A DNA stretch of 64,000 nt, from positions 1,290 to 65,289 of IMG/VR virus record IMGVR_UViG_2540341127_000002. One strand, written 5' to 3'. The DNA comes from a virus. Lineage: Duplodnaviria; Caudoviricetes. Shown here in pieces: positions 3,456 through 43,045 of this stretch (position 1 is its first letter; every line of letters starts with the position of its first letter). Position numbers and translations under genes: made by a program. Below the pieces are notes generated by a model. That model made no database searches. It saw only the letters and a program-made list of their open reading frames with translations, and had not been told where the DNA came from.

Positions 3456-4831
3456 CTCGCCTCCGGGAATTCGCTGTATTCCTTGCCGTCGAGCAACCGG
3501 CCGGCCTTCCCGGTCTTTGCGAGATGTCCGTGGCCGTCAGCCCAATAGTCGCGCCAGATCTTGCACGGCTCTCGTCCTTCTTCTGCGGCGCACAGAACGA
3601 TGTCGTGTCCGTCAGAAACGATGCGGAATTCATCGCCGTCGGGGAATCGCCAGAAATTCGTTCCCTCTTCGCGGTCGCCAAGCTCTTCGGCGATCTCCCA
3701 ACGGCCCCATTGTTTAAAGAAAAACGGGACTTCGGCGGCGGAGCATTGATCGCGCAGCGATCGCGCCCAGGCGGGGTGCATCGGCCGCGCGGCGGGGCCG
3801 CTCTCGCCGCCGCAGATGACCCAATCGATGTATGGATTGGGGGTCTGCCACTGGCCAGCTGAGACGCAATGCACATTCCCTGCCTCGTCAATCACGCGAC
3901 CGATGTTATTCCAAGCATGGACGAAGCGGCCTTCGACGAGTGGCTCTCCGTTGCGGACAACGTGGTATTTGCCGATCGTTCCGAGTGGTGGATGGCCGTT
4001 CTCGATTGATGAGCGCAGCCATGCGCTCGGGCCCCTGTTCCAATCCTTTCGCCAGAAATCCATAACTTGTTTCTGGACGATTTCCGGAACCCATGAGGGC
4101 CAGTCGAAATCTGCCCAATCGCGCTCGCTGCGCCGCGTGGCGCGAATATAAGGCGACATGTCGATTGCGCCCAGCATCGGCTCGATCGAAACGAAGCGCA
4201 TCGCCGCCGGCGTCGCGAGAAGGTCTGGGATGCGCTCGTCGGCGCGGGGCTGGTCTTCGGCGGTGACGCCGAGCCAGACATTGGGGAGAGGCCAGTCGCA
4301 ATCCTCAAACAAACCAGCTGCACATGGACTGCCTGTCAGCTCCCCCGCCAGCGCCTCCATGTCTTCGCGCCATTGGCCGCTTGCGTGAAAGCACTCGACT
4401 GAACTTTGCAGATAGCTACGCATTCGCTTCGGCCGCTTCGTCAGCAACGCGAAACGATGCTTCGGGCAGAGCGCCATGACGGCGAAGATGCGATCAAGCC
4501 ATTCGTCTTTGACCCAGTCGCCGAAAATATCGCTCATGCTGCAAACGAACACCCCGCGCGGCGCGCGCCATGACAGCGGCTGCAGCAGCGTCTTTTCGTC
4601 TAGAAAGATCTCGACGTCGCCCCTCTGGCGATGGCCAGGCTTATAAGGCAGGCCGGTGCCGCCGGTGTCGCCGGCCTTGACGTTGAGCGCTTCGGCGTAG
4701 CAATGTTCGCAGGCCGGCGAGACCTTCTCGCAATGCCAGCCGCGCTTGCCGGTCATGACATTGCGCGCGCGGATCGGGTTCCAGGTGACGCCCTTGGGCA
4801 GGCCGAGCGACGCCCATTCGATCTTGGTCAT
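3452..4831 (-). CDS. Phage Gp37/Gp68 (DUF5131) family protein
   Basis: TKIEW, WNP, CEKVSPACEHCYAE, SMSDIF, LLTKRP, VSIEPMLG, DWVICGGESG, FFFKQWG. Confidence 0.92.
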   Translation of the reverse strand: MTKIEWASLGLPKGVTWNPIRARNVMTGKRGWHCEKVSPACEHCYAEALNVKAGDTGGTGLPYKPGHRQRGDVEIFLDEKTLLQPLSWRAPRGVFVCSMSDIFGDWVKDEWLDRIFAVMALCPKHRFALLTKRPKRMRSYLQSSVECFHASGQWREDMEALAGELTGSPCAAGLFEDCDWPLPNVWLGVTAEDQPRADERIPDLLATPAAMRFVSIEPMLGAIDMSPYIRATRRSERDWADFDWPSWVPEIVQKQVMDFWRKDWNRGPSAWLRSSIENGHPPLGTIGKYHVVRNGEPLVEGRFVHAWNNIGRVIDEAGNVHCVSAGQWQTPNPYIDWVICGGESGPAARPMHPAWARSLRDQCSAAEVPFFFKQWGRWEIAEELGDREEGTNFWRFPDGDEFRIVSDGHDIVLCAAEEGREPCKIWRDYWADGHGHLAKTGKAGRLLDGKEYSEFPEAR

Positions 4832-10028: not shown

Positions 10029-10345
10029 CACGCTCTGCCCTTTTCGTAGTGGGCGTCGAGCTCTGTGAGTGCCTTGCGCAGCACGTCGCGAAGATCTCGC
10101 TTGCCCCAAAAGGTCACGGCGCTGCTGTCGTCATCGCCTGGCCTGTGAATGAACGGACCTTTGAGTTCGAATGCCTCGCCGTCTTCCTTCACCGATACGG
10201 GACGAACGCCGCCATCAATCATCGGCTTGTAAGAGACGGGTAGCTCCAGATAGAAACGCAGCCCGGTGAATGAGTGGCCGTCGATCTCCTTCGAAATGAT
10301 CTCGATCCGGTCCGTCATTTCTTCTGCGTAAACATTCACGCGCAT
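10028..10345 (-). CDS. Hypothetical phage protein
   Basis: RBS upstream; protein-like composition. Confidence 0.65.
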   Translation of the reverse strand: MRVNVYAEEMTDRIEIISKEIDGHSFTGLRFYLELPVSYKPMIDGGVRPVSVKEDGEAFELKGPFIHRPGDDDSSAVTFWGKRDLRDVLRKALTELDAHYEKGRA

Positions 10346-11358: not shown

Positions 11359-11750
11359 CGCGCAATCCTCGCTTCGTAAACTCCGCGTCTTTGCAGTGGC
11401 GCGAGTTCGATGCGCAGCTTCCTCGGACGCTTCGGAAATGGCCTGACCGCGATCTTCCGCTTCGGCGGAATGAACGCGCCGACGTGATTTGCCTCTCGGC
11501 GCTTCGCCTTGGCGATCGCGGCGACGTCGTCTTTCGTCTTCTCGGCGTGGCAGGGGATGCAGAGAATGCGGGCGTTCTCGAATGTCGGCTCGCCCGTCAA
11601 TCCGTCCGGATCGTCATGGTCGCATTCATAGGCGCCCGGCTTGACGACGGCGTAGCAGCGCGTCCCGTTCTCAAGAACGCCCTCGCATCTGCCGCCGCAA
11701 TGCTTGTAGCGGGCGACGATGATCGAGCGTTTGAAGTTCTTGCGGGCCAT
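11355..11750 (-). CDS. HNH endonuclease
   Basis: CGGRCEG...ECDHDDPDGLTGEPTFENARILCIPCHAEKT. Confidence 0.85.
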   Translation of the reverse strand: MARKNFKRSIIVARYKHCGGRCEGVLENGTRCYAVVKPGAYECDHDDPDGLTGEPTFENARILCIPCHAEKTKDDVAAIAKAKRREANHVGAFIPPKRKIAVRPFPKRPRKLRIELAPLQRRGVYEARIAR

Positions 11751-12646
11751 CACTCCGCCTCCTCGACGAACTCGCCGGAGGCGTTGAGCGAATACCAAAT
11801 GCCCGCCTTGATGCCGTTCTCGCCGACCTTGCTCGCGCGAATGGCGAGGATGTCGCCGTCCTCATCGCGACAGACGAGGCAGATCGCGCCGCCTTCTCCG
11901 GCTTTCGCTTTCGATCTACGCCCGAGTGCGGCAGCAACAGAATTCTTGCCGCTGGTGGCTGCGTTCGACCCGTAGCCGCTGGTGGCTGCGTTCGCCCCGT
12001 CGCCGCTGGTGGCTGCGTTCGCCCCGTCGCCGCTGGTGGCTGCGTTCGACCCGTAGCCGCTGGTGGCTGCGTTCGCCCTGTCGCCGCTGGTGGCTGCGTT
12101 CGCCCTGTCGCCGCTGGTGGCTGCGTTCGCCCCGTCGCCGCTGGTGGCTGCGTTCGCCCCGTAGCCGCTGGTGGCTGCGTTCGCCCCGTCGCCGCTGGTG
12201 GCTGCGTTCGCCCCGTAGCCGCTGGTGGCTGCGTTCGCCCTGTAGCCGCTGGTGGCTGTCGATTCCTTCTCGACCGTCGCCTTGTCGAAAATCCATCTCA
12301 CCGCGCGTGAGACGATCTCGCCGATCGAAAGCTCGACGCCGATCGTGATCGTGGCGCTGGCGATCTTCGTATCTTCGTCGTGACGCGCGAGATCGCCGCT
12401 CTGCTCGACTTCATGAAAGCGCGAGACGCCGACGGGATAGTAACGAAACACGTCGAGCGGGTTTTCGCAGGCATGCCAGCCGTTCTGGCAGACGACGATC
12501 GGTCCTTCGACGGAATAGGTTTTACCGACCTCGAACTGAAAACCGCGACACTTCAGATCGCGGTCGAAGCCCTTCACCGTCTTGACGACGACGGGCGCAG
12601 TCGGCGCGACCGCGGTGATTTTGGTTTTTTTCGACTTGCGCGCCAT
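11750..12646 (-). CDS. Phage protein with 9-aa tandem repeats (DUF7666-like)
   Basis: KGFDRDLKCRGFQFEVGK, GWHACENPLDV, (ANAATSGDG)n, VGENGIKAGIWYSL. Confidence 0.88.
   Translation of the reverse strand: MARKSKKTKITAVAPTAPVVVKTVKGFDRDLKCRGFQFEVGKTYSVEGPIVVCQNGWHACENPLDVFRYYPVGVSRFHEVEQSGDLARHDEDTKIASATITIGVELSIGEIVSRAVRWIFDKATVEKESTATSGYRANAATSGYGANAATSGDGANAATSGYGANAATSGDGANAATSGDRANAATSGDRANAATSGYGSNAATSGDGANAATSGDGANAATSGYGSNAATSGKNSVAAALGRRSKAKAGEGGAICLVCRDEDGDILAIRASKVGENGIKAGIWYSLNASGEFVEEAE
11948..12258. repeat. 27-nt coding tandem repeat, about 11.5 copies
   Basis: Unit gccgctggtggctgcgttcgccccgtc with few variants. Confidence 0.95.
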
Positions 12647-14055: not shown

Positions 14056-14154
14056 CTTTTTCTCCCGTTGGGTTTCCGGGTCACCGCCCGCCACAGCAGC
14101 GCCAAACATAACATTTCTGTTGACTTGATCAAGCACAACATATATGTTGCGTCC

Positions 14155-14343
14155 ATGAACAGTAGGCAGGCCAAGCGCTATCTCGCCCAAAAGGGAGCGA
14201 CGTTCTATCCCGGCAAAGGCGGACACCTTCACGTCACGCTTAACGGCAAGCGCTCGGTCCTACCGCAGCATGGCGGATCGAAAGACATTCCCAAGGGGCT
14301 CTGGCTTTCGATCCTCAAGCAGCTCGGCATAGAGGAAAAATAA
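14155..14343 (+). CDS. hicA: HicA-family toxin
   Basis: GKGGHLHV...SVLPQHGGSKDIPKGLWLSILKQLG; TTGACT upstream. Confidence 0.9.
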   Translation: MNSRQAKRYLAQKGATFYPGKGGHLHVTLNGKRSVLPQHGGSKDIPKGLWLSILKQLGIEEK

Positions 14344-14345
14344 TC

Positions 14346-14762
14346 ATGCGTTACGCCGTCACGCTCACCAAAGACGGAGACGGGATTTCCGTTTGCGTCC
14401 CCGACATCCTGGAAGCCCTTACCTTTGGTGAGGATCGGGACGATGCGCTCGCCCGCGCGTCTGATGCGATCGAAACCGCCCTCATGGGCTATATGGCCGC
14501 CCGTGAAGACATTCCGGCGCCAAAGGCGAAAGGGCGTCACTACGTCACGCTGCCCGCCCTTTCCGCAGCGAAGATCGAACTCTATTCGGCGATGCGCGCC
14601 GCCGGACTCGGAAAGGCCGCGCTCGCCAAGCGGCTCGGCGTCGCCCTGCCGCAGATCGACCGATTGCTTGATCTCGGCCATGCCTCGCGGCTCGACGCGA
14701 TCGAGCGCGCCTTTGCCGTGCTCGGCAAGACCATCAGCATCGAAGTGCGCGACGCCGCGTAG
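14346..14762 (+). CDS. hicB: HicB-family antitoxin
   Basis: VCVPDILEALTFGEDRDDALARASDA; C-terminal HTH. Confidence 0.9.
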   Translation: MRYAVTLTKDGDGISVCVPDILEALTFGEDRDDALARASDAIETALMGYMAAREDIPAPKAKGRHYVTLPALSAAKIELYSAMRAAGLGKAALAKRLGVALPQIDRLLDLGHASRLDAIERAFAVLGKTISIEVRDAA

Positions 14763-27630: not shown

Positions 27631-27978
27631 ATGAGTATGCAGGCATTGCAATGGGCGCATGAGCAGAAAGTCGGCCACCCAGAGGCAAAACTCGTCTTGA
27701 TCTTACTCGCGGCGGCGAGCGGCTGGCCCGAGGCCGCCTGTTTTCCGGATCTGGGAAAACTCGCCGAGCAAGCTGAGATTCGCTCGGCTTATGAGCTGCG
27801 GTTCATTCTCTCGCGGCTGAAGCAGCAAGGCTTGGTCGTCGAGATCGAACCTGACTTCGGATTCCTGATCTTGCCGTCTGACGAGGACTCCCGCGCGCTC
27901 GCGGCAGACCCAGATCGCGCGCGGCGGGAGTTCGCCGACTATCTCCCCTCGCGCCGTCAGATGAACCCGCAGAAATAG
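27631..27978 (+). CDS. HTH protein resembling a replication-initiator N-terminus
   Basis: MSMQALQWA, AKLVLILLA, CFP....LAEQAE. Confidence 0.7.
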   Translation: MSMQALQWAHEQKVGHPEAKLVLILLAAASGWPEAACFPDLGKLAEQAEIRSAYELRFILSRLKQQGLVVEIEPDFGFLILPSDEDSRALAADPDRARREFADYLPSRRQMNPQK

Positions 27979-28016: not shown

Positions 28017-29123
28017 ATGGCGGAGGCGATGGTGCGCATTCACCGCGCGGCGCGACGACGGTCATACACGATCGTCGACAACGCCATTCTTGCCGGCGGC
28101 GCGCTCTCGCTCGAGGCTATGGGCCTTTTGGCGCATCTCTTGTCGCGTCCGGACGACTGGAATGTTTCGCTTGCGCAGCTCGGGCGCCTGCATGGCGTCG
28201 GGCGAGATCGCATCCGGCGGATCATGCACGAAATCCGCGACGCCGGGTATGCGCGGCTGGAGACGATCCGCGACCCTGAAACGGGCCATTTGCGCGGCAC
28301 AGTGTGGAACGTGATGGAGCTGGCGGAGACGGACGAAGCCTGCGCGGCGCGTGTCGCCGCCGACGCTCACCGAGAGCCTGAAAACCCGTCTCTCGGTGAA
28401 GAATCAACAACATCCACCGAGAGCCTGAAAACACCGACGCTCGGTGAAAACCGACAGTCGGAAAACACCGACGCTCGGCGAAAACCGACTGTCGGTTTTC
28501 AGGGCGCCAACCAATTAATATATAATAAACCAATTACTGACTCTGAGAACCAAAGCTCTCTCTCTGAAGATTCGGTTGAATGCCGCGAGCGAGAGAGAGA
28601 GGATTTTCCAGAGCCAAATTTAGAAGCTCCTGTGGATTCACCACAAGCGGCGCGATCGCTTGTCGAGCATGATTGGGATAAATTCCGCGAGCGCTGGAGA
28701 TGGCGCGCCGATGAGGCCGAAGACGTCGCGAAATGCGTGTTCGTCCATCTGGGCCAGGCCGATCGGGCCGCCGCGCTCCGCCATGTGCGCTATTACCTTG
28801 ACGACAAGGCGAAGAAAGGCAAGCCGACCCTTTACGCTGGCAATTGGTTGAAAAATCGCGGCTGGGAAGAATTTGCTGAGCGAGAGGCGAGGGTCGCTGA
28901 GGCCGTTGCCCGGCGCAGACGCGAAGAGCGCGAGAAATACGGCGGTGTGATCATCCGACAAGGAACGCCACAGGCGGCGGCGTGGGCGCGCCACGACGGC
29001 GTTCGTCTCAAGTTCGGCCACGTCGGGCCGTTTTACGACGCCGTCGTGAAGCCCAGCGAATGGCCGCCATCTGCGACACATGGCGACGCGCCGCAGACCG
29101 AGCCGAGGCGCGAGGCAGGGTGA
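28017..29123 (+). CDS. Phage replication initiator protein
   Basis: YTIVDNAIL, LSLEAMGLLAHLLSRPDDW; internal iteron-like repeats. Confidence 0.8.
   Translation: MAEAMVRIHRAARRRSYTIVDNAILAGGALSLEAMGLLAHLLSRPDDWNVSLAQLGRLHGVGRDRIRRIMHEIRDAGYARLETIRDPETGHLRGTVWNVMELAETDEACAARVAADAHREPENPSLGEESTTSTESLKTPTLGENRQSENTDARRKPTVGFQGANQLIYNKPITDSENQSSLSEDSVECREREREDFPEPNLEAPVDSPQAARSLVEHDWDKFRERWRWRADEAEDVAKCVFVHLGQADRAAALRHVRYYLDDKAKKGKPTLYAGNWLKNRGWEEFAEREARVAEAVARRRREEREKYGGVIIRQGTPQAAAWARHDGVRLKFGHVGPFYDAVVKPSEWPPSATHGDAPQTEPRREAG
28368..28540. repeat. Iteron-like repeats plus AT-rich stretch; putative replication origin
   Basis: caccgagagcctgaaaac twice; gaaaacaccgacgctcgg twice; aaaaccgactgtcggtttt palindrome; then ccaattaatatataataaac. 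Confidence 0.75.
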
Positions 29124-30699: not shown

Positions 30700-31344
30700 A
30701 TGAGTAACGACGCCAGCGGAAACAGCCCAAAATCAAAGCGCGGCGGCAAGCGACCCGGAGCCGGCAGGAAGCCCAAGGGTTATGTGAAGCCGGCTGCGAT
30801 TAGCCAATTGAATCGGGTTCAGGCGCTTGCTTCAGAGCCGCCGGTCGAAATCGACAGCGTGGCGCAAACGCATGCCAAGGACGCGATCGAGGCGTTCGTA
30901 AAAATCCTATTCAATGGCAGCAGCGAGCCGGCCCGGATCTCCGCGGCGAAAGAAATCCTCGATCGCGGTTATGGAAAGCCTGCGGTAGAGATCGGCGGCG
31001 ACGCGGCGCCGATGCTGCCTTTCATGATGCGGCCGACCAGCAACGATACGATCTCGGTCACCGAGGAGGTCAGACTGGAGGCGCGCCGCTACGCCAATCT
31101 GGCGATCAAGACGCTGCACACAATTGCCACCAACGGCGCAAGCGAAACTGCCGTCGCTAGCGCCGCTAAAGCCCTTCTTGACAGGGGCCTCGGCACAGTC
31201 GGCAAAGCGCGTATGATCGAAGATCAAAAGCCCGACCGGCTCGGCAAGAAAGAGGAAATTCGTCGCGCCGCCGTCGAGGCCACCGCCTCCGGCATCTTCT
31301 CGCCGCGCCAGCCGCCGCGAAATCCTGTCGCTAGAGCGCAATGA
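30700..31344 (+). CDS. terS: Terminase small subunit (atypical, internally duplicated)
   Basis: RGGKRPGAGRKP start; LGKKEE end motif; coupled to terL. Confidence 0.75.
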   Translation: MSNDASGNSPKSKRGGKRPGAGRKPKGYVKPAAISQLNRVQALASEPPVEIDSVAQTHAKDAIEAFVKILFNGSSEPARISAAKEILDRGYGKPAVEIGGDAAPMLPFMMRPTSNDTISVTEEVRLEARRYANLAIKTLHTIATNGASETAVASAAKALLDRGLGTVGKARMIEDQKPDRLGKKEEIRRAAVEATASGIFSPRQPPRNPVARAQ

Positions 31345-33110
31345 TCCGATGGTCGACGGCGTGCCCGGACTGGCAAGAACGCATTGTCCAGGGCCGCTCG
31401 CTTATCCCGTTCCCGCCGCTCTTTCCGGAAGAAGCGCGGGTCGCGCTCGACCTTTTCAAATCGCTGCCGATCGTCGACGCGGTCGGTAAGCCGACATTCG
31501 GCCAATGCGCGCGCCCGTTCATCACCGATTTCGTGAGCGCGATTTTTGGATCATACGATCCCGAGACCGGCGAGCAGCTGATCAATAAATTCTTCGAGCT
31601 GATATCGAAAAAAAACGGAAAAAGCACAAAGTCCGCCGGCATCATGCTGACCGCGCTGGCGCGTAATTTTCGCGAGTCGGGCGAATTTTACATTCTCGCG
31701 CCATCTAAGGAAGTCGCCGACAACGCCTATACGCCGGCACGCGACATGGTGAATTCGCATCCCATGCTCTCGGCGATCATGAAACCGCGCCCAGGCCGCG
31801 TCATCGAACATCTGACCACCGGCGCCTTCATCAAGGTCATCGCGGCCGATACCGAAGTCGTCACCGGCAAAAAGACGATTGGCCTGCTGGTCGAAGAACT
31901 GCATGTGTTTGGCCAGATGGCGCGCGCCGCCAATTTGTTGATGGAAATCGAAGGCGGCCTGGCGTCGCGGCCGGAAGGCTTCGTGATCTATCTGTCGACC
32001 ATGGCCGATGGCCCGCCGAGCGGCGTGTTCGCTGAAAAGCTCGAGGAGTTTCGCGCGATCCGCGACGGCAAGATTGTCGTGCCGAATAGTCTTCCCGTTC
32101 TCTACGAATTTCCATCCGATCTCTTAAAAAATGACGCGTTCCGCCGACCTGAAAACTGGCATGTCACCAATCCCAATCTCGGTGTTTCGGTCAGCGAGTC
32201 CTATCTCGCCCAGAAACTTGCGGAAGCCGAACGCGCCGGCCGCGCGCGCCTGAACGGGTTCTTCGCCAAGCATCTCAACGTCCAAATCACCATGGCGCTG
32301 CGCGCCGATGGCTGGACCGGTGCGTTGATCTGGGCCCGCGGCGGGGCGCCGGGGCTGACGCTCGACGATATCCTGGCGCGCTGCGAAATCGTCACGGTCG
32401 GCATCGACGGCGGCGGGTTAGACGACATCCTCGGCGTCGCCGTCGTCGGCCGCGAGAAAGGCACGAACCGCTGGCTTGCCTGGACGCACGGGTTGATTTC
32501 GACGATCGGCGTCTGGCGGCGTAAGGCCAATGCCGCGGAATATCTGTCGTTCAAGAGGGCCGGCGACCTGACTGTGTTTCGCTTCGGCCATATTGACGAG
32601 CGGGAAATCGACGAAGACTCCGACCTGGCCGATATTTTCGCTGACGTCCCGGCGGCGGTCGACGATCCTGAAGCGCTACCGCACGACATTCAATTCGTCG
32701 TCGATCTCGTTGCGCGGATCCGCGACGCGGGACTTTTGGCTGAGGTCGGCGTCGACGCGGCCGGCATCGGCGCCATCGTCGACGCACTGGCCGGCATCGG
32801 CGTCACCCAGGACGCCGGGACGCTGGACGCGGTTCGCCAGGGCATTGGCTTGATGGGGCCGATCAAGACCGTCGAGCGCAAACTCGCTGACGGCAGCTTT
32901 CGTCACGGAGATCAGCCCTTGCTGAATTACTGCGTCGCCAATCTCAAAATCGTCCCGACCTCGACGGCGATTCGCGTCGCGCGTGACGAAGCTGGTCTCG
33001 GCAAGATCGACGTGGCGATGGCGATGTTCAACGCTGTTTCGCTGATGACGCTGAACCCAGAATCATCGAGCGCCATTCCCGATGATTATGACCTGGCGGT
33101 GTGGGCGTGA
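31341..33110 (+). CDS. terL: Terminase large subunit
   Basis: SKKNGKST Walker A, LVEELH Walker B, GIDGGGLDD nuclease motif, KID. Confidence 0.95.
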   Translation: MIRWSTACPDWQERIVQGRSLIPFPPLFPEEARVALDLFKSLPIVDAVGKPTFGQCARPFITDFVSAIFGSYDPETGEQLINKFFELISKKNGKSTKSAGIMLTALARNFRESGEFYILAPSKEVADNAYTPARDMVNSHPMLSAIMKPRPGRVIEHLTTGAFIKVIAADTEVVTGKKTIGLLVEELHVFGQMARAANLLMEIEGGLASRPEGFVIYLSTMADGPPSGVFAEKLEEFRAIRDGKIVVPNSLPVLYEFPSDLLKNDAFRRPENWHVTNPNLGVSVSESYLAQKLAEAERAGRARLNGFFAKHLNVQITMALRADGWTGALIWARGGAPGLTLDDILARCEIVTVGIDGGGLDDILGVAVVGREKGTNRWLAWTHGLISTIGVWRRKANAAEYLSFKRAGDLTVFRFGHIDEREIDEDSDLADIFADVPAAVDDPEALPHDIQFVVDLVARIRDAGLLAEVGVDAAGIGAIVDALAGIGVTQDAGTLDAVRQGIGLMGPIKTVERKLADGSFRHGDQPLLNYCVANLKIVPTSTAIRVARDEAGLGKIDVAMAMFNAVSLMTLNPESSSAIPDDYDLAVWA

Positions 33111-35491: not shown

Positions 35492-36826
35492 ATGGCCGAT
35501 ATCGTGACCCTTCGCCAGAACCGCGCGAAGGCATATGAGAAGATGGAAGCGAGCCTCGCGGCCGACGATTCCGACACGCGTCAGGCGGACTTTGACGCTG
35601 CCGCGGCGGAGGTCGAAGCGCTCGATCGTGAGATTGCCAACGCCGAACGCGTCCAGCGCCTGAAGGGCGACGGCGCGGTCGGCACGCTCGAGTCTGGCGA
35701 TCCGAACGCAATTCCGGCGCGCGGTTTTATGGCGAAATATCGCAACATGCCGGGGGCGAATGAGAAGCGCCCGGGAGCCATCCTTACGAGCGCGCAGTCG
35801 GCAGCCTTTGGCGATCTGTTGATGGCGACGCGCCGCGCCAAAATCACCGGCCAGGTCGATCCGCTGCTTATTGAAGCTTCGCAGGGTGCGAATGAGGCTA
35901 TCGCCGAAGACGGCGGGTTCCTTGTCGAGAAGGACATCGCCGATGGTCTGCTGATGCGGACCTTTGCGCAGGCCAATCTTGCGAGCAAAGTTCGTCGCAT
36001 CCCGATCTCGGCGCGGTCCAACGGCGTCAAGATCAATGCGCTCAAGGACGATTCTCGCGCGACCGGCGCGCGCTGGGGTGGCATGCAGACCTATTGGATT
36101 GGCGAGGGCGACTCCCTCACCCCGACGCGTCCGAAGTTCCGCCAGATGAACCTTCAGCTCAAGAAGCTCGCCGGCATGCTGTATGCGACAAGCGAAGCTC
36201 TCGCGGACGCGACGGCGCTGTCGTCGATTATCTCTGAGGCGTTCCCCACCGAATTCTCTTTCATGATCGACGATGCGATCTTCGAAGGCGGCGGCGTGTC
36301 CAATCCGCTCGGCTTCATGAATGCCGGCTGCAAGGTGACGGTCGCCAAAGAGGCGGGCCAGGCCGCGAAGACGATCGAATTCGACAATATCACCAAGATG
36401 TGGGCGCGCTTGCCGGCGCGTTCGATGGCCAGCGCGGAGTGGTGGATCAACCAGGACACGCTGCCGCAGTTGATGGGCCTGAACATGGTCATTGGCACCG
36501 GCGGCATTCCGGTCTACCTGCCGCCCGGCGGGCTGTCGCAATCGCCTTATGGCACGCTGATGGGCCGCCCGGTGATTCCGATGGAATACTGCTCGACGCT
36601 CGGCGCCGAGGGCGACATCGTTCTCGCCGATCCGACGAACTACGTCATGATCGACAAGGGCGATATCCAATACGCCACGTCCATTCATGTCGCCTTCGTG
36701 ACCGATGAGCAGGCGTTCCGGTTTATCTACCGCTGTGATGGACAGCCGGTCGACGACAAGCCGATCACGCCGTTCAAAGGCACCGACAAGCAGTCGACCT
36801 TCATCACGCTGGCGCCCCGCGCTTAA
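35492..36826 (+). CDS. HK97-fold major capsid protein
   Basis: DGGFLV, WIGEG, GTLMGRPV, FVTDEQAFRF..RCDGQP. Confidence 0.95.
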   Translation: MADIVTLRQNRAKAYEKMEASLAADDSDTRQADFDAAAAEVEALDREIANAERVQRLKGDGAVGTLESGDPNAIPARGFMAKYRNMPGANEKRPGAILTSAQSAAFGDLLMATRRAKITGQVDPLLIEASQGANEAIAEDGGFLVEKDIADGLLMRTFAQANLASKVRRIPISARSNGVKINALKDDSRATGARWGGMQTYWIGEGDSLTPTRPKFRQMNLQLKKLAGMLYATSEALADATALSSIISEAFPTEFSFMIDDAIFEGGGVSNPLGFMNAGCKVTVAKEAGQAAKTIEFDNITKMWARLPARSMASAEWWINQDTLPQLMGLNMVIGTGGIPVYLPPGGLSQSPYGTLMGRPVIPMEYCSTLGAEGDIVLADPTNYVMIDKGDIQYATSIHVAFVTDEQAFRFIYRCDGQPVDDKPITPFKGTDKQSTFITLAPRA

Positions 36827-36911
36827 TCCACCGTCCAACGACACGATCATCTGACGCCCGGACGCTGAGTCCGGACGTCCTTCCCAACTTTCCTCCAGGA
36901 AGGATTTGCAT

Positions 36912-37385
36912 ATGTCGAATCTTACATTCGGCGCGCGCCATATCGTCAAGGGACTCGACGCTGTCGCCGACGCCTTCGCCGGCACGGTCTATTCCGACGT
37001 CGTCAATATGAAAGCGTATGCCGCCGCTCGGTTCATCGTCCATAAGGGCGTCGGGACCACCGGCACGTCGACGCTCACGCTCGAAGCATGCGACGATGCG
37101 GCTGGCAACAATCCCGTCGCGATCCCGTTCAGCTACCAGGTCTACGCTGGCGCTGACGATGTTCCCGCTGACGTCGTGAACGCCACTGCGGCCGGATTTG
37201 CGACAACTGCCGGCTCAAGCCAGCTCTATGTGCTCGAGGCGGAGTCGCAGCGCATGCCTGCGGCGAAGCCATGGTTGCGGTTGAAAGCTGTCGAAGTCGT
37301 GGATTCCCCCGTGCTTGGCGGCGTTTTGATCGAACTGCTGAAGCCCCGCTATGCGCGTCACGTTCCGGATACCGCGATCGCCTGA
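36912..37385 (+). CDS. Putative capsid accessory protein
   Basis: Position after capsid gene; RBS. Confidence 0.65.
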   Translation: MSNLTFGARHIVKGLDAVADAFAGTVYSDVVNMKAYAAARFIVHKGVGTTGTSTLTLEACDDAAGNNPVAIPFSYQVYAGADDVPADVVNATAAGFATTAGSSQLYVLEAESQRMPAAKPWLRLKAVEVVDSPVLGGVLIELLKPRYARHVPDTAIA

Positions 37386-37456
37386 TCTGCGGCGCCCTGG
37401 CCCCCCTGTTTCGCTTTCACAGCGGCCCGTAAGGGTCGGAACAAGGATTCTTCATT

Positions 37457-38164
37457 ATGGCCACTCGTTCACGATTCGCCGCCGGCATCCTGACGTTCTT
37501 CGATCGCACGACGCGGGAAACGGTTCTTCCGCTTGCGCCGGTGTTCTTCGAAGATGATTTTCTCGGGCCGGCGCTCGACACCACGAAATGGACGGCGCTC
37601 GACACTGGAGCCGCGACGGAAGCCGTCGTGGCCGATTTGGCCAACGGCGCCGTCGGCCTCGCGCTCGACGCAACAAACGAAGTTCAGCTCGCCGGCATTT
37701 CTTGGAATGACCAGCGCACACTGGCGCTCGCCCAGGGCCTCATTCTTGAGGCGCGGTTCCGTCTTTCTGTCCTCCCTTCAGCGGCGAGCGTGATTGCGGT
37801 GATCGGACTGCAGGGCGATCACAACGCCGCCGTCGACACGGTCGCGGAGTCGATTTGGTTCCGCGCCGACGGCAATGGGCAGATCACGGTCGAGAGCGAC
37901 GACACGAGCCATGAAACGTCGAAAGTCGCCACTGGCGTCACCGTCACCACGGCGGATTGGGTCATTGGCAAGATCGACTGCACAGACATTGCCGATGTGA
38001 AATTCTACATCAACGGCAATCGCGTCGCTGAAGGCACGACCTTCAATATGAGTCAGGTCGCCGGCTTGGCGCTGCAGCCGGTCGCGCGCATCAGCAAGAG
38101 CGCCGCGACGTCGGTCGGCACGCTGCAGGTCGACTATATTCGCGCATGGATGAACCGGGCGTAA
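37457..38164 (+). CDS. Putative virion protein (beta-rich)
   Basis: FFEDDFLG; VDYIRAW; position. Confidence 0.65.
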   Translation: MATRSRFAAGILTFFDRTTRETVLPLAPVFFEDDFLGPALDTTKWTALDTGAATEAVVADLANGAVGLALDATNEVQLAGISWNDQRTLALAQGLILEARFRLSVLPSAASVIAVIGLQGDHNAAVDTVAESIWFRADGNGQITVESDDTSHETSKVATGVTVTTADWVIGKIDCTDIADVKFYINGNRVAEGTTFNMSQVAGLALQPVARISKSAATSVGTLQVDYIRAWMNRA

Positions 38165-38170
38165 TCGCCG

Positions 38171-38800
38171 ATGTTCGCCATCTCTGCGCCAGCGTCGGAT
38201 CGCAATCTACTGACGCTCGAAGAGCTTCGCGCCGCTCTCGATCTCGACGGGACAGAAAGCGACGCGAAGCTTCTCTCGATCGGGCTGGAGATTTCCGACG
38301 CGATCGCGAATGCTTGCCGGGTTCCTGTCGACGGCGTGATCCCGGCGACGCTTCGCCGCGAAACCATCATCGATACAATGCGACTGTGCCGCGACCAGGA
38401 GCAGCTGATCATGACGCGGCGCTTCGTCGACACGATTTCCAACATCACGGTCAACGGGATCGCTCTTGATCCTGCAGAGTTTGAAGTCGACAAGGCGGCG
38501 GGGCTGGCGCGCCGCCTGTCGTCGTCAGGCTATTACGCATGCTGGCCGAGCGGGATTATCGTCATGACCTATACCGCTGGGTTCGAGACGGTCCCAAGCG
38601 CGTTGAAGGACGCGGCGAAATTGGAGCTTGTCGCGAGATGGTCGTTGTCCGATCGCGACCCCGCCATAAAAAGAGATCGCACGCAGGGACTTGGAGAAAC
38701 TGAGTATTTTCCGAGCTCCTCAGAGGAGACGGATTCGCCGCTGATCTCCCCGGATGCGCGCGCAAAAATCAGCTCATACAGCTATCAGCCGACGGTGTAG
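38171..38800 (+). CDS. Head-tail connector protein
   Basis: LLTLEELRAAL; YTAGFETVPSALKDA. Confidence 0.78.
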   Translation: MFAISAPASDRNLLTLEELRAALDLDGTESDAKLLSIGLEISDAIANACRVPVDGVIPATLRRETIIDTMRLCRDQEQLIMTRRFVDTISNITVNGIALDPAEFEVDKAAGLARRLSSSGYYACWPSGIIVMTYTAGFETVPSALKDAAKLELVARWSLSDRDPAIKRDRTQGLGETEYFPSSSEETDSPLISPDARAKISSYSYQPTV

Positions 38801-38803
38801 GAC

Positions 38804-39217
38804 ATGATCAGGCCGGGACTCTACACGATCGCCGATTATGCCCTCACAACCGCCGTGGCGGCGTTGGCGCTCTCGCCGATCGTTGATCTTGAGGGCATGG
38901 AAGAACTGTCGGTCGAGTTCAATTTCGCCTATGGCAGCGGCGGAACGAGTTTGAAGGCGTGGTTGCAGACATCGCTTTCACAAGGCACGCGCTGGCGCGA
39001 TCTCGCCTGCTTTACCGCGACAACCGCTTCCAAGAACCGCGATTTCAGCCTACGCCGGACCGCCGACACAGGATTCTGGACGCCGGGCAGCGGAACGCTC
39101 CCCGACGACACGATCGCGTCGAGCATCGTTTTTGGCGATAGGCTGCGGCTCCTGATGACGTCCGTCGGAACCTATGCCGGCGGGACTGTGCTTTCGGCGC
39201 GCGCGGCCGCCACGTGA
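38804..39217 (+). CDS. Hypothetical virion protein
   Basis: Position; FAYGSGGTS. Confidence 0.65.
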   Translation: MIRPGLYTIADYALTTAVAALALSPIVDLEGMEELSVEFNFAYGSGGTSLKAWLQTSLSQGTRWRDLACFTATTASKNRDFSLRRTADTGFWTPGSGTLPDDTIASSIVFGDRLRLLMTSVGTYAGGTVLSARAAAT

Positions 39218-39600
39218 ATATCCATCTAGCCCGGCTCAATCGCGATCTGAAGCGGAAAGGCGAGCGCATTAAACTCCGGCGCTACGCCGGAACGAACACG
39301 CAGATTTTCACAGAAGTGGACTTATTGGCGTTCGTTCGCGGCTATACGCCGCAAGAACTCGCGGCCGGCAGCGGCATTCAGGCCGTGGACAGCTTCGTGA
39401 TCCTCTCGCCAACGGCTCTATTTGCGGCGCAGTGGCCTGGCGGCCAACAGCCTCTGGAGCCGCCATTCAACCCAGATCCGCATCTGCCGAAGAAAGGCGA
39501 TCACGCCATCATTCAAGGGCGCGCGCGGACCGTGGAAGTTGCGTCGCCGATCTATGACGTCGACGAATTGGTCAGGATTGAAATGAGGGTTTTGGGTTAG
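39214..39600 (+). CDS. Putative head-closure protein
   Basis: VRGYTPQEL; LVRIEMRV; position. Confidence 0.65.
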   Translation: MNIHLARLNRDLKRKGERIKLRRYAGTNTQIFTEVDLLAFVRGYTPQELAAGSGIQAVDSFVILSPTALFAAQWPGGQQPLEPPFNPDPHLPKKGDHAIIQGRARTVEVASPIYDVDELVRIEMRVLG

Positions 39601-39618
39601 GCTGGGTTGGAGGATTCT

Positions 39619-40011
39619 ATGAACCGTCGTTCCTTTATGCGCAAAGCAGTGGTTGCTGTGGCTCTAGCGCCTGTCGTCGCTTTTGCCGCCGTTCGGTCAT
39701 TTTTTGATGAGCGCCGCGCCGTCGAACGGCTCTGGTTCGATCTTAAGAGCGTTCCACGCGATTTGGCGCGTCCGCGGGCTATCGACGTGGTGCGCGCATT
39801 GCAGAACATCGCCCTGAACGGCCGGGATGAAATTGCGCGCGTCATGGCGGCGCAGTCGCTCTTAGATCGCGGTTTCGGCAATCCGAGCAAAGCGCAATAT
39901 GCAGTCGTGAGAATCGATGGGGAGGGGCTCGGCGCGCTCGGCGCGATCTGCTGCGTCGATTTGAAGGGCCGGTCAATCGAAGAATTTCGGCTGATCAACG
40001 TTTCAGTCTGA
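39619..40011 (+). CDS. Protein with twin-arginine-like leader and TerS-like motif
   Basis: GGAGG RBS; MNRRSF plus hydrophobic helix; ARVMAAQSLLDRGFGNP matches TerS ARISAAKEILDRGYGKP. Confidence 0.65.
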   Translation: MNRRSFMRKAVVAVALAPVVAFAAVRSFFDERRAVERLWFDLKSVPRDLARPRAIDVVRALQNIALNGRDEIARVMAAQSLLDRGFGNPSKAQYAVVRIDGEGLGALGAICCVDLKGRSIEEFRLINVSV

Positions 40012-40237
40012 CGCCTGGGCCGCCTTCGCGCGTGTCGCCAGCATCAAGAAAGACAACGCCGGCGGTCTCAAGGGCCGACTTGATGGCGGCAAGGTTCTTG
40101 GTTTGCATGTTGGGCATGTCGTCGACCGCCTCGGCCCGCTGAAGGGCTGGGTAGGAAACGCCGCTGCGTTCCGCCAGGTCGCGGCCGGACCATTTGAGTA
40201 GAGCCCGCGCCGCCCTGATTTGCGCCCCTGTAAGCAT
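39995..40237 (-). CDS. XRE-family HTH regulator
   Basis: MLTGAQIRAARALLKWSGRDLAERSGVS...ALETAGVVF...GPGVRL. Confidence 0.88.
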   Translation of the reverse strand: MLTGAQIRAARALLKWSGRDLAERSGVSYPALQRAEAVDDMPNMQTKNLAAIKSALETAGVVFLDAGDTREGGPGVRLKR

Positions 40238-40329
40238 GGCCGCAAAATCCATAGGCGGCACGGGCTTGGCAAGGACAGTTTTTGGCATTCGTGACGCCCG
40301 CGTCGGCATGGTTGATATGGTTGCCATGG

Positions 40330-40354
40330 CTAATGATAAAAAACTTATCATTAG
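40330..40354. promoter_or_regulatory. Perfect 10-bp inverted repeat; putative operator in the divergent XRE/RAMP promoter
   Basis: CTAATGATAA-aaaac-TTATCATTAG in an AT-rich intergenic region. Confidence 0.7.
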
Positions 40355-40417
40355 AGCTTGCAATTGTGCATAAAATGATGAATATAACAACCTCCAAATT
40401 CGATCGGAGGTTGGGCT

Positions 40418-40999
40418 GTGAAAACGATCATCGCAACGCTGCGGGGGGTGTCACCGTATTCTCAATCGCGCCACTACGTGCGAGAGCTGGAGCAAGGCGA
40501 GTCAGCGGACGACAATTATCGGCGCACATGGCGTAACCATCTGCATACGGATAATTCCGGGAATGTGATCATCCCGGCGAATTCTCTGAAGAATTGCCTC
40601 TCAGAGGCGGCAAAATTCATGAGCATATCGGTTCCCGGAAAGGGAAAAGCGACCTATACGAAGAACTTTGAGGCTGGCGTGATGGTCGCTAAGTCGCCGA
40701 CGATCGGCCTAAGCAAAGACGAGGTCCAAATGGAGGCGCTGTTCCTTCCTTCCGACGGAAGGCGCGGCGGCCCCAAGCGGGTCATGAAATATTATCCGAT
40801 CATTCCCGAGTGGGAGGCGGATGCAGAATTCATCATCGTCGACGAAACCGTTTTACAGTCGTCACTCAAGGACAAGAGCCGGACGGTGTTTCAGGATGTT
40901 CTCGAAGGGGCTGGACAGTTTATTGGGATCGGGCGCTTTCGGCCTCGGAACAACGGCTATTATGGCCGGTTCGAGGTTGTCGGCATCCGAGAAATCTGA
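40418..40999 (+). CDS. Stand-alone RAMP/Cas7-like protein
   Basis: GGAGG RBS; N-terminal strand IIATLRGVSPY, IIPANSLKNCL (cf. RAMP IPGSSLKG), PIIPEWEA, Gly-rich loop AGQFIGIGRFRP...GYYGRFEV. Confidence 0.8.
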   Translation: MKTIIATLRGVSPYSQSRHYVRELEQGESADDNYRRTWRNHLHTDNSGNVIIPANSLKNCLSEAAKFMSISVPGKGKATYTKNFEAGVMVAKSPTIGLSKDEVQMEALFLPSDGRRGGPKRVMKYYPIIPEWEADAEFIIVDETVLQSSLKDKSRTVFQDVLEGAGQFIGIGRFRPRNNGYYGRFEVVGIREI

Positions 41000-41082
41000 C
41001 GTCTCGCGACGCACCATGACGCAACGCGATGCTTCTCGGCGCCGCGCGCCGCCCTGTAATGCGCCGCAACGCAACGCAACGT
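41000..41082 (+). repeat. Pentamer tract 1: YRY-NN, 17 triplets
   Basis: cgtCT cgcGA cgcAC catGA cgcAA cgcGA tgcTT ctcGG cgcCG cgcGC cgcCC tgtAA tgcGC cgcAA cgcAA cgcAA cgt. Confidence 0.9.
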
Positions 41083-41140
41083 CTCTTCGCCAGCGACAAG
41101 CAGGCTACGGCCTGCTTCCCGGTGGCGAAAGTCACCAACT

Positions 41141-41245
41141 AGCGTGCCGCTTCACCGCGTGTCGCATCGCTTCATATCGCGTTGTATTTCCCGTCATTGT
41201 GTCGCTTTGCGCCATATCGCACCGCTGCGCACCGTTTCGCAACGT
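41141..41245 (+). repeat. Pentamer tract 2: NN-YRY, 21 units
   Basis: AGcgt GCcgc TTcac CGcgt GTcgc ATcgc TTcat ATcgc GTtgt ATttc CCgtc ATtgt GTcgc TTtgc GCcat ATcgc ACcgc TGcgc ACcgt TTcgc AAcgt. Confidence 0.9.
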
Positions 41246-41271
41246 TATTCTCTCCTATCATCGGAAAGCAC

Positions 41272-41787
41272 ATGGCAAAATCTCGCTTTGAGACATCCGC
41301 AGATGTTGAGACGTGCGTCGAATATCTGCGCAAACATCAGAACTCAGGACTCATCGCTTATGTCGAGTTGTCCAAAACCACTGGACGCGAGATAGAAGGC
41401 AAGGATCGATACATCCTGGCGTCTGCGCGGCGCATTCTCGAGCGCGAAGGCATTTTTTTCGTGACCGAGACGGGCAATGGCGTGAAGCGCGCTGATGACG
41501 CTCAGCTCGCGAAGCTATCGACGGAAGAACCCATCATCAAAACCCGCCGGATCGCTAAGAGAGCGCGTAAGCGCCAAAGCTCAGTAAACATCCAGGGGCT
41601 TACAGACGAGCAGCGCATGGCGTTTTGGATTGGCAGCGCTATCCTTGGCGCTATCGATCAGGCGGCGAGTCGTGTGTTCCGCAATGCCGTGGAAGAGGCG
41701 TCGAACACATCCGACAGCCAAATCTCGCTCTCGAAGACGATTGATCTCTTCAATAAGATGAAATCGTCGAGTGACAGGCCGCAGTAG
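41272..41787 (+). CDS. Accessory protein between pentamer tracts, possible winged-helix
   Basis: GGAAAG before ATG; IAYVELSKTTGREI...ASARRILERE.IFF.TETGNGVKR; basic helix. Confidence 0.8.
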   Translation: MAKSRFETSADVETCVEYLRKHQNSGLIAYVELSKTTGREIEGKDRYILASARRILEREGIFFVTETGNGVKRADDAQLAKLSTEEPIIKTRRIAKRARKRQSSVNIQGLTDEQRMAFWIGSAILGAIDQAASRVFRNAVEEASNTSDSQISLSKTIDLFNKMKSSSDRPQ

Positions 41788-41794
41788 GTTTTTC

Positions 41795-41884
41795 AGCGTA
41801 TCGTGTCGCAGCGCGACGCGTCGCGCCGCCCGGCGTTGCACGACTCCGCGTCGCAGCGCAGCGCTTCGTAATGTAACGCAACGT
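41795..41884 (+). repeat. Pentamer tract 3: NN-YRY, 18 units
   Basis: AGcgt ATcgt GTcgc AGcgc GAcgc GTcgc GCcgc CCggc GTtgc ACgac TCcgc GTcgc AGcgc AGcgc TTcgt AAtgt AAcgc AAcgt. Confidence 0.9.
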
Positions 41885-41940
41885 TCCATTTTCCCAACGC
41901 CGAGTCGATTGTTGTCGATTGGGCGGCGGGAAACCGCTTT

Positions 41941-42065
41941 GTCGCGACGTATCGTGTCGCACCGCAACACAGCGCGGCGCTCCACGCTATATAGTTCTGA
42001 GACGCGTCGCTTCGCGACGTAACGCGCCTCCCCGCATCGCGGCGCTAAGCTACGCAACGCAACGA
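41941..42065 (+). repeat. Pentamer tract 4: NN-YRY, 25 units
   Basis: GTcgc GAcgt ATcgt GTcgc ACcgc AAcac AGcgc GGcgc TCcac GCtat ATagt TCtga GAcgc GTcgc TTcgc GAcgt AAcgc GCctc CCcgc ATcgc GGcgc TAagc TAcgc AAcgc AAcga. Confidence 0.9.
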
Positions 42066-42091
42066 TTTAAGATCAATAGGGGATACCTGCC

Positions 42092-43045
42092 TTGGATCAT
42101 CCACCGATCTCCTTCGCCCGCCCAGACTGGCGCGAGCGCATCATGGCTGGCCAGTCGCTGTTGCCAGATTTCCCGATTGACAGGCTATCAACCAAGTCTG
42201 CCGACCGCGCTTTGGAGATATGGCGCGATCTCAGAATTCCGGATGTTGCTGGCGACCCGACCTTTGGCGAAGTCGGCGCGCTATGGTTTAAGGATTTCAT
42301 CTATTCGATGTTCCTTATGAAGGGCGCGAGCCGCGTTGTCCGTGAGGCGTTCGTGATGACGCCAAAGAAATCCGGCGCGAGCACGAATTGCGCCGCGCTG
42401 ATGCTGACGGCTCTCGTTTTGAATAGCCGGCCGAACGCCGTGTTTGGGCTTTTTGGCGTGACGCAGGCTGTTGCGGAGATCGCTTTCTGTATGATGAAAG
42501 AGACGATCTCTCTCGACGATAAGCTATCAGCGCTGTTATCCGTTCGGCACCCACGCGAAATTCACCACCTGACGACTGGCGCTAGGGTTGTCGTGAAGTC
42601 TCTGAGCTCTGAAACGCTTGCATGTGAATATCTGAGCGGCGCTCTTATCGATGGTGCGCAATTGTTCCGGCATGAACGATGGGCTGACGCCCTAAGCGAT
42701 CTTCGCAGCGCTCTGGATGGGTATGAGGATTCCTTTCTCATTCTCAACGCGACGCAGTCCAGAGAATTTCCGACCGGGCCGTTCGCGCGAGAATTGATGC
42801 GCGCGCGCGCGATCCGCGACGGCGTATGTAATGCCGGCGTCTTGCCGTTGATCTATGAACCGCCGGAAGGCGTCGACTGGCAGGATCCGAAGAACTTCCC
42901 ACTGCTCCATCCTGGCGTCGGACGCACCGTCGCGGCTGAATTTTTGGAGCGCTCGAAGGAACGCGCGGAGCAAGACGGATATTTGGCTCATTGGGCCGCG
43001 CAATGGCTCAATGTGGAAACGAAGCCAATGGCGGCCGTCTCCTAG
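42092..43045 (+). CDS. Truncated terminase-large-subunit paralogue (ATPase domain only, degenerate motifs)
   Basis: PDWRERIMAGQSL, PTFG, LMLTAL, HLTTGA, RAIRDG, LPLIYE align with TerL; PKKSGAST and LIDGAQ replace Walker A/B. Confidence 0.85.
   Translation: MDHPPISFARPDWRERIMAGQSLLPDFPIDRLSTKSADRALEIWRDLRIPDVAGDPTFGEVGALWFKDFIYSMFLMKGASRVVREAFVMTPKKSGASTNCAALMLTALVLNSRPNAVFGLFGVTQAVAEIAFCMMKETISLDDKLSALLSVRHPREIHHLTTGARVVVKSLSSETLACEYLSGALIDGAQLFRHERWADALSDLRSALDGYEDSFLILNATQSREFPTGPFARELMRARAIRDGVCNAGVLPLIYEPPEGVDWQDPKNFPLLHPGVGRTVAAEFLERSKERAEQDGYLAHWAAQWLNVETKPMAAVS

Follow-up and report, generated by a model that had tools for sequence, protein, structure and literature searches.

A probable VIPR cassette with CGC-type guide tracts in a prophage and its putative targets in a satellite-like element

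We describe here a gene cassette in IMG/VR virus record IMGVR_UViG_2540341127_000002 that very probably encodes a VIPR (Viral Interference Programmable Repeat) system. Positions 1,290 to 65,289 of the record were analysed, a stretch of 64,000 nucleotides that we call the window and that lies within a 3.77-Mb genome as part of a prophage. Central to the cassette is vipr (40418-40999, plus strand), a gene with a GTG start encoding a protein of 193 amino acids (aa) that is predicted to be a single-RRM RAMP protein with thumb and G-loop. Four tracts of pentameric units follow on the same strand, and the first pentamer begins at 41000, directly abutting the TGA stop codon of vipr (40997-40999). The open reading frame (ORF) and the tracts behind it had been singled out in a first-pass annotation of the DNA, and both are confirmed here. 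Counted in unbroken 5-nt register, the tracts hold 17, 21, 17 and 25 units, which gives a total of 80; the earlier count was right for three of them, but had given 18 units to the third tract and 81 overall. Most units start with a triplet of the class YRY (70/80 after recount, formerly 71/81), YGY is found in 63/80 and the exact triplet CGC in 43/80. Position 1 is C in 64/80 and position 2 is G in 68/80 units, the third base is C in 57/80 and T in 21/80, and positions 4 and 5 hold mixed bases. All four tracts have CGCAACG as their 3' end, as had been annotated. Read as genes for guide RNAs, termed vrRNAs, tract 1 would extend from 41000 to 41081 (16 units + CG), tract 2 from 41143 to 41244 (20 units + CG) and tract 3 from 41797 to 41883 (17 units + CG), all on the plus strand. 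Tract 4 is broken at units 10-11 (41988-41997) and probably represents two RNAs on this strand, 4a (41943-41987, 9 units), which is without the constant 3' end and may be a remnant, and 4b (41998-42064, 13 units + CG), with a TATATA-like stretch upstream.

A chance origin of this periodicity is excluded. Background occurrence of YGY in the window is 9.9% of positions, and a scan of the whole window for at least 10/15 YGY in register found the four tracts only. The same holds for the plus strand of the entire 3.77-Mb genome at a threshold of at least 9/12 in register, while its minus strand contains two borderline 9/12 sites, both away from the tracts. Tandem Repeats Finder misses the tracts, whose units are too dissimilar for it (less than 70% alike). 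Searching 39900-42300 against Rfam returned no family and no hammerhead, and a pseudoknot like that of Escherichia phage SUSP1 is not evident at the constant 3' end of the tracts.

Pfam has no match for Vipr, and in PHROGs it matches a family that is itself unannotated (phrog_4652, E 1.1e-12). An AlphaFold (AF2) model of the protein (pLDDT 86, pTM 0.81) has type VII Cas7 and Csm3 as its best Foldseek matches (E 4.5e-7, TM about 0.5); 88 PDB chains are found at E up to 0.001 and, among the matches listed, all are Cas7/Csm3-type subunits. As modelled, Vipr thus has a RAMP fold of the Cas7/Csm3 type, in agreement with the RAMP/Cas7-like character assigned to it at first pass. Best structural matches from type VII and type III systems could also be expected if the protein were an orphan Cas7, the remnant of a decayed class 1 CRISPR-Cas locus, beside a CG-rich sequence that is periodic by chance. 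However, no other cas family and no repeat-spacer array occurs in the 64-kb window, as the first-pass annotation had noted for the vicinity of the gene, the periodic tracts are unique in the genome and recur beside homologues, and the sequence match of the protein is to Vipr and not to Cas7. We regard this explanation as refuted, with next to no probability left to it. Among all PDB sequences the sole significant match is 36pp, 'SUSP1 Vipr protein', at E 0.0054 with the single sequence and 1.9e-4 with a profile, and the runner-up is found at E 0.27. Comparison of the Vipr profile by hhalign with the Vipr-like protein of Shigella phage Z31 (Felixounavirus) gives a probability of 96.1% and E 3.7e-9, and the gene of this homologue has GGT/NN arrays downstream. 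The matches to the characterised Vipr and to Z31 cover the part from the thumb to the C-terminus only, and identity to SUSP1 Vipr is only about 30-40% over the C-terminal third. The G-loop motif is invariant in the family alignment (A1). At the level of sequence, the protein therefore matches SUSP1-type Vipr.

Three bioRxiv preprints from 2026 describe VIPR (10.64898/2026.04.26.720920; 10.64898/2026.04.26.720927; 10.64898/2026.10.15.759431). The system consists of the RAMP protein Vipr, vrRNAs made of GGY/NN units with a constant 3' tail, and usually a vap gene. Phages and proviruses carry the majority of the loci; the code by which double-stranded DNA is read skips one nucleotide, and natural targets are satellites, prophages and other VIPR systems (10.64898/2026.04.26.720920). 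The first-pass annotation had suggested a resemblance to phage VIPR, and fold, SUSP1 Vipr match and tract association all bear this out. The system is not of a new kind, VIPR being already in print.

The Vipr family is large, with 2830 clusters at E up to 0.001; a relative is encoded in 156/207 pattern-matched stretches of IMG/VR and in at least 477 metagenome stretches. Pentamer tracts had been expected adjacent to homologues too, and this is what we find. From three collections 192 loci with a full-length homologue were assembled, 166 after dereplication, and at least one called tract lies within 3 kb of the homologue in 147/192 and 125/166 of them, respectively. The 41 dereplicated loci where no tract was called have a median flank of 3.8 kb of 6 kb. 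Near the homologue gene there are 368 tracts in 0.80 Mb of DNA, far from it 5 in 0.99 Mb. The triplet varies among the 166 loci: on the gene strand it is GGC in 80, CGC in 44, GAC in 21, CTC in 6 and of other kinds in 15. Relatives at 45-57% Vipr identity have the canonical GGC/NN form on the gene strand, and the direction of the RNA is therefore fixed. Across all scaffold classes the last two or three units carry AA as NN. Separately, we observed a 39-unit GGC/NN array located 4.3 kb from vipr on the same viral contig (locus L082, 9121-9315), which may be a solo or distal vrRNA array.

A direct comparison can be made with locus L034, which is collinear with the window (Vipr 91% identical, DNA 77%). 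Between the two orthologous arrays, scaffold positions are identical in 96/132 cases and NN positions in 30/88 (Fisher p 1.8e-8). This supports CGC as the putative scaffold and NN as the probable carrier of specificity, the role that had been proposed for NN from the window alone and with which the in-frame gene matches described below also agree. A tree of 120 Vipr proteins needs at least 24 changes of scaffold. Residues that track scaffold position 1 are V110, F126 and R41, and those that track position 2 are R173, E106 and S15, all in thumb and G-loop; the direction of this co-variation is consistent, with independent pairs too few (3 and 9; median p 0.25 and 0.125). It is conceivable, albeit doubtful at present, that the fixed triplet is an evolving address label, such that the Vipr of each phage would accept no vrRNAs but its own and decoy guides of rivals or satellites would have no access to it. 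If this were true, scaffold switching would be an escape route in an arms race and, moreover, a source of orthogonal programmable VIPR pairs.

The published reading code can be followed in the clade of this Vipr. We scanned 311 unique guides against 2.3 Mb in 10-unit windows with skips of 0 to 3 nt. Matches of at least 19/20 were obtained for three guides at skip 1, for none at skip 0 or 2, and for one at skip 3. The skip-3 match is to an unmasked homologous tract; a guide of locus L044 that reaches 19/20 on L116 was put down to chance, being of low complexity and matching 23/42 overall. Two of the three skip-1 guides have perfect in-frame matches to rival vipr genes. The first guide of locus L001 (CGC type; 4589-4703, same in L035) reproduces the codons for the G-loop of Vipr, the skipped base being the wobble base. 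It matches the vipr gene of L034 at 24/24 and that of the window at 22/24 (40940-40975, plus strand), while its own vipr is matched at 19/24, with the mismatches mainly in the Arg codon family. A guide of L154 (722-791) matches five related rival vipr genes at 20/20 on the other strand. Guides that target vipr have been described, with weaker match to the own gene (2026 VIPR preprints), and the pattern of L001 and L154 mirrors them. Thus, guides in the clade appear to match either strand under the 1-nt-skip (NNx) rule, and the base skipped is at the wobble position.

For the guides of the window itself, targets were sought in several DNA collections. The own 3.77-Mb genome contains no target: identity over the full guides is 0.58-0.71 and 12-unit windows reach at most 19/24, which equals other skip rules. 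Only background was obtained with 1.47 Mb and then 2.3 Mb of VIPR-flanking loci from viruses, genomes and metagenomes, masked and unmasked, and likewise with 0.38 Mb around relatives of TerL in IMG/VR; a scan of IMG/VR with the prophage helicase as query found nothing. The database that gave matches consists of 57 regions (1.09 Mb) from the host genus, in which TerL was located in 22/77 other genomes. Here, units 1-14 of tract 2 match the capsid domain of a gene for a fusion of HNH and major capsid protein (HNH-capsid gene) at 26/28 in genomes G011 and G078. At the same homologous site the match is 24/28 in G061, 20/28 in G020 and 19/28 in G077. The best windows score 18/18 and 23/24, whereas 40 shuffles of the guide reach at most 16/18 and 20/24, other skip rules at most 15/18 and 18/24, and 279 foreign guides at most 17/18 and 22/24. 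The guide predicted from tract 2 thus spells capsid codons of a satellite-like element, which is described below. Tract 1, with units 3-11, finds the HNH-capsid gene at 17/18 in G061 and at 15/18 in G078 and G077. Units 12-20 of tract 4, which belong to 4b, find one homologous portal site at 17/18 in G078 and G077, 16/18 in G061 and G020, and 15/18 in G011. The sites of tracts 1, 2 and 4b are all in codon frame with the skip on the wobble position, and tracts 1 and 4b have their best matches in the element family already hit by tract 2, a family that makes up about 5% of the database. This suggests, weakly, that tract 1 spells HNH-capsid codons and tract 4b portal codons of this family. At least one of the candidate guides, and probably three, would thus have targets in the element.

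Codon spelling of this kind also bears on the possibility that the tracts act as DNA, as arrays of binding sites for a winged-helix or HTH (helix-turn-helix) protein or for packaging, instead of encoding guide RNAs. Two 5-nt units come close to one helical turn, a protein of DNA-binding type is encoded inside the array and a terminase fragment adjoins it, all of which would fit such sites. DNA iterons, however, would have no need of NN positions that are hypervariable and spell, in frame and with a 3-nt period, codons of foreign genes. Moreover, the tracts go with the RAMP gene whether or not a vap gene is detected: at 41/113 other loci a vap homologue lies no more than about 1 kb from vipr in the same orientation, against 125/166 loci with tracts. 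In homologous systems, RNAs have been shown to co-purify with Vipr. We therefore consider an action as DNA sites very improbable, if not quite as remote as an orphan Cas7.

The element that the guides point to was found in five other species of the genus and is absent from the genome that carries the prophage. In G061 it is an island of about 12 kb (L239, 3552-15426) with low GC content at third codon positions, located between an aldehyde dehydrogenase gene and mscL. It encodes an integrase, an AlpA-type HTH protein (HTH_17 below the Pfam cut-off; PHROG 25900, E 1.9e-11), portal, head-tail adaptor, protease, the HNH-major-capsid fusion, TerL and small unannotated ORFs. Sixteen ORFs were called, of which 7 are without annotation; tail, holin or lysis genes are not among the 16. 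Neither terS nor a primase-replicase was recognised in the element by Pfam or PHROGs. The block from TerL to portal is syntenic across the five genomes and 49-81% identical. Capsid-forming PICIs (phage-inducible chromosomal islands; cfPICIs) are the closest known kind (PMC10085698). Like these satellites, the target element combines integrase, AlpA-type HTH, HNH, TerL, capsid, protease, portal and head-tail adaptor within some 12 kb, and no tail or lysis gene was found in it. It differs in that no terS or primase-replicase was recognised, that its HNH domain is fused to the capsid gene and that the gene order is TerL-capsid-protease-adaptor-portal. By its predicted genes, the architecture is that of capsid-forming PICI satellites, and we call the element satellite-like. 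A foreign GAC-type guide (L007, 4566) was also seen to match at 22/24 at skip 1 inside the G061 element (L239, 6119), which we treat as chance.

We hold it highly probable that the locus is a genuine VIPR cassette, a moron between the head and tail genes of the prophage, with a CGC scaffold and with guides that include some against head genes of the satellite-like element. Besides vipr and a vap-like gene for a winged-helix protein, it would contain four to five genes for vrRNAs and a regulator gene of HTH type in divergent orientation. In each vrRNA unit two free bases would follow a fixed triplet, CGC (YGY), and constant xxCAA units would form the end of the vrRNA. By homology with the SUSP1 complex, Vipr protomers would polymerise along the vrRNA, one per 5-nt unit, with thumb and G-loop holding the triplet and exposing the NN pairs. 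With each NN pair, two bases of double-stranded DNA could then be read and the third passed over, and the bound Vipr-vrRNA complex would block transcription of the target. The phage would in this way silence the head genes of a satellite that might otherwise steal its tails or compete with it. We infer in this the mechanism, the expression of the RNAs and the relation of helper and satellite.

Several points weigh against it. The target database comprises TerL neighbourhoods of the genus only. Scores of 17/18, as obtained for tracts 1 and 4b, are not significant alone, since 9/279 foreign guides reach them, as does one other skip rule for each of the two tracts and, for tract 4, 1/40 shuffles. 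The matched part covers 14/21 units of tract 2, 9/17 of tract 1 and 9/25 of tract 4, and over its whole length tract 2 matches at about 70%, below the published whole-guide criterion of 80%. For tracts 3 and 4a no target exists in the DNA searched, and the 13-14/16 that they reach on the five elements is background. The pairing of this phage as helper with the element as satellite is something we only infer, because seven element proteins (of the 16 ORFs) have no similarity to the prophage window by tblastn at E up to 1e-3. As for the RNAs, a promoter of sigma-70 type or a terminator is not predicted on the plus strand, and RNA-seq contigs from three culture studies cover the whole 10 kb including late genes, without giving ends, strand or level; contigs of a soil metatranscriptome do not give these either. 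Finally, the triplet is CGC (YGY) and not the GGY that defines VIPR.

Some of these points would also suit a real VIPR cassette that is decayed or idle in this lysogen, its guides being degenerate relics and, of the matches, that of tract 2 alone a trace of past targeting. Exact CGC is retained in only 43/80 units, tract 4 is interrupted, tracts 3 and 4a are without target, a broken terL fragment abuts the cassette, and Vipr is present in none of 60 relative genomes, 36 of them from the same genus. Yet both ORFs, vipr and vap, are intact, and Vipr keeps all 42 invariant family residues of alignment A1. Scaffold conservation set against randomised NN in the orthologous L034 array also speaks against decay, and internal degeneracy is, by the published account, frequent in vrRNAs that do work. 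Decay or idleness is thus an unlikely explanation, though the least unlikely of the three that we weigh against a genuine cassette.

VIPR biology so far reportedly rests on enterobacterial and Pseudomonas examples. With the genuine VIPR cassette as the preferred reading, the window adds an independent case from a distant, high-GC host. New in this analysis is the match of tract 2 under the 1-nt-skip rule to the capsid gene of a tail-less element of about 12 kb, which provides a credible natural target for the predicted system, in a clade of unusual scaffold diversity. Guides against satellite-like head genes, together with guides of relatives (L001, L154) against rival vipr genes, would support VIPR as a general weapon between mobile elements. 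The cassette is compact, about 2 kb, and has a different scaffold (CGC), and its relatives with scaffold variants could be used in tests of triplet reading and orthogonality.

Upstream of vipr lies a divergent gene for an HTH regulator (39995-40240, minus strand; its start is uncertain, with the ORF open to 40390). It matches Pfam HTH_3 at E 7.9e-5 (23.1 bits, cut-off 23) and transcription regulators in PHROGs, and it adjoins vipr only in the closest relatives (L034/L141 at 93%, L001/L035 at 76%). The AT-rich control region between the two genes contains a perfect inverted repeat of 10 bp with a 5-nt gap (40330-40354), which is operator-like and may act as such. A hairpin with a stem of 10 pairs (40388-40413, plus strand) encloses GGAGG just upstream of the vipr GTG and could serve to control translation. 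By their appearance, the repeat and the hairpin are elements that control the cassette. The promoter and terminator scan gave, around the 5' end of vipr and on the minus strand in both cases, a promoter-like signal at 40427-40454 and a terminator-like one at 40388-40413. A stem-loop is predicted between tracts 1 and 2 (41085-41131, plus strand) with a minimum free energy of -37 kcal/mol (z -3.8; 1/200 shuffles as good). It is nearly identical in L034 (about 10245-10292), where the surrounding NN positions differ, and nothing like it was seen after the other tracts; it is a candidate 3' tail, terminator or processing site. Inside the array, the vap-like gene (41272-41787, plus strand) encodes 171 aa, modelled as an N-terminal winged helix and a C-terminal helical bundle. 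The AF2 model has a pLDDT of 91 and its winged-helix matches are middling (Z 7.4-8.0; Foldseek E 0.04), no Foldseek match being found at E up to 0.001 and none to Pfam or PDB sequences. The 3.77-Mb genome contains one vipr and one vap gene.

The prophage looks complete and is of siphovirus type, with TerS, TerL, portal, protease, capsid, adaptor, tail terminator, tape measure and endolysin, and the cassette sits between the head/head-tail genes and the tail genes. At its right edge is a 5' fragment of a foreign terL (42092-43045, plus strand) that codes for 317 aa and only for the ATPase domain (phrog_9, E 1.2e-33, profile positions 179-456 of 812). Its identity to the prophage's own TerL (31341-33110) is only 32%, and the neck gene begins within it, at 42991. 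L034 is without this fragment and without tract 4, and is otherwise collinear. Because in several relatives 1.3-4 kb separate the cassette from a terL or portal gene downstream, the fragment looks like a scar of transfer. It is not similar to the TerL of the satellite-like element. In a soil metatranscriptome (run X12), five short contigs map to the prophage at 36000-41500 of the window; 4/5 are identical to it, among them one at 41234-41471 that spans the end of tract 2 and the start of vap, and the fifth has one letter changed. Soil samples therefore contain the phage or a very close relative. Elsewhere in the window, about 12 tandem copies of 27 nt (11894-12298, 95% alike) lie in a DUF7666 gene (11750-12646, minus strand) and encode a 9-residue protein repeat, and a toxin-antitoxin pair of HicA/HicB type is found at 14068-14762 in the early region. 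Direct repeats of 17/34 nt at 28416-28495, downstream of an ORF resembling a replication initiator (27631-27978), look like iterons and may mark the prophage origin.

Among known systems, type II VIPR is the closest, with Escherichia phage SUSP1 and a Pseudomonas fulva prophage as exemplars. The window shares with it a small single-RRM RAMP protein with thumb and G-loop, a two-gene core of vipr and a vap-like gene with vrRNAs on both its upstream and downstream sides, a constant 3' end of the vrRNAs, 5-nt units of three fixed and two free bases, and a location in a phage or prophage. It also shares coding-region matches under the 1-nt-skip rule in which the wobble base is the one skipped, putative targets on a satellite-like element and, in relatives, putative targets in rival vipr genes combined with a weaker self-match. 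In the SUSP1 structure preprint, G1 of the triplet is assigned to H17 and D177, G2 to R138 and W178, and Y3 to a narrow pocket. Beside the triplet itself, a difference is that the window Vipr has R173, F174 and Y126 where, in the HMMER alignment, SUSP1 Vipr has D177, W178 and R138. Further differences are a constant end of two or three xxCAA units without evident pseudoknot, a vap-like gene whose product is a predicted winged-helix protein of 171 aa, and capsid and portal genes as putative targets instead of the excision recombinase of the satellite. The triplet had been taken at first pass as marking a distinct variant, but it is probably not undescribed. The methods of one preprint list NNNGG, YNNNG and NNNNG as alternative repeats and admit 'a related consensus' (10.64898/2026.04.26.720920). 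In the notation of these words CGC/NN reads as C-N-N-C-G and therefore fits the published YNNNG repeat, whereas the GAC/NN and CTC/NN of relatives fit none of the three. With type III Csm3 and type VII Cas7 the window Vipr shares the predicted fold of RRM, thumb and G-loop. Cas7 and Csm3 are backbone subunits that polymerise on the guide with periodic base flipping. Class 1 CRISPR-Cas systems differ from the window, which is without a CRISPR array and other cas genes, and the footprint in the window would be 5 nt and not 6 nt, with a guide in gapped code. In biological terms a parallel is vibriophage ICP1, whose phage-encoded CRISPR-Cas is aimed at the PLE satellite. Both would be RNA-guided systems carried by a phage against a parasitic satellite, but ICP1 uses a full CRISPR-Cas system with acquisition and cleavage, whereas the system in the window would be a minimal binder with hard-wired guides.

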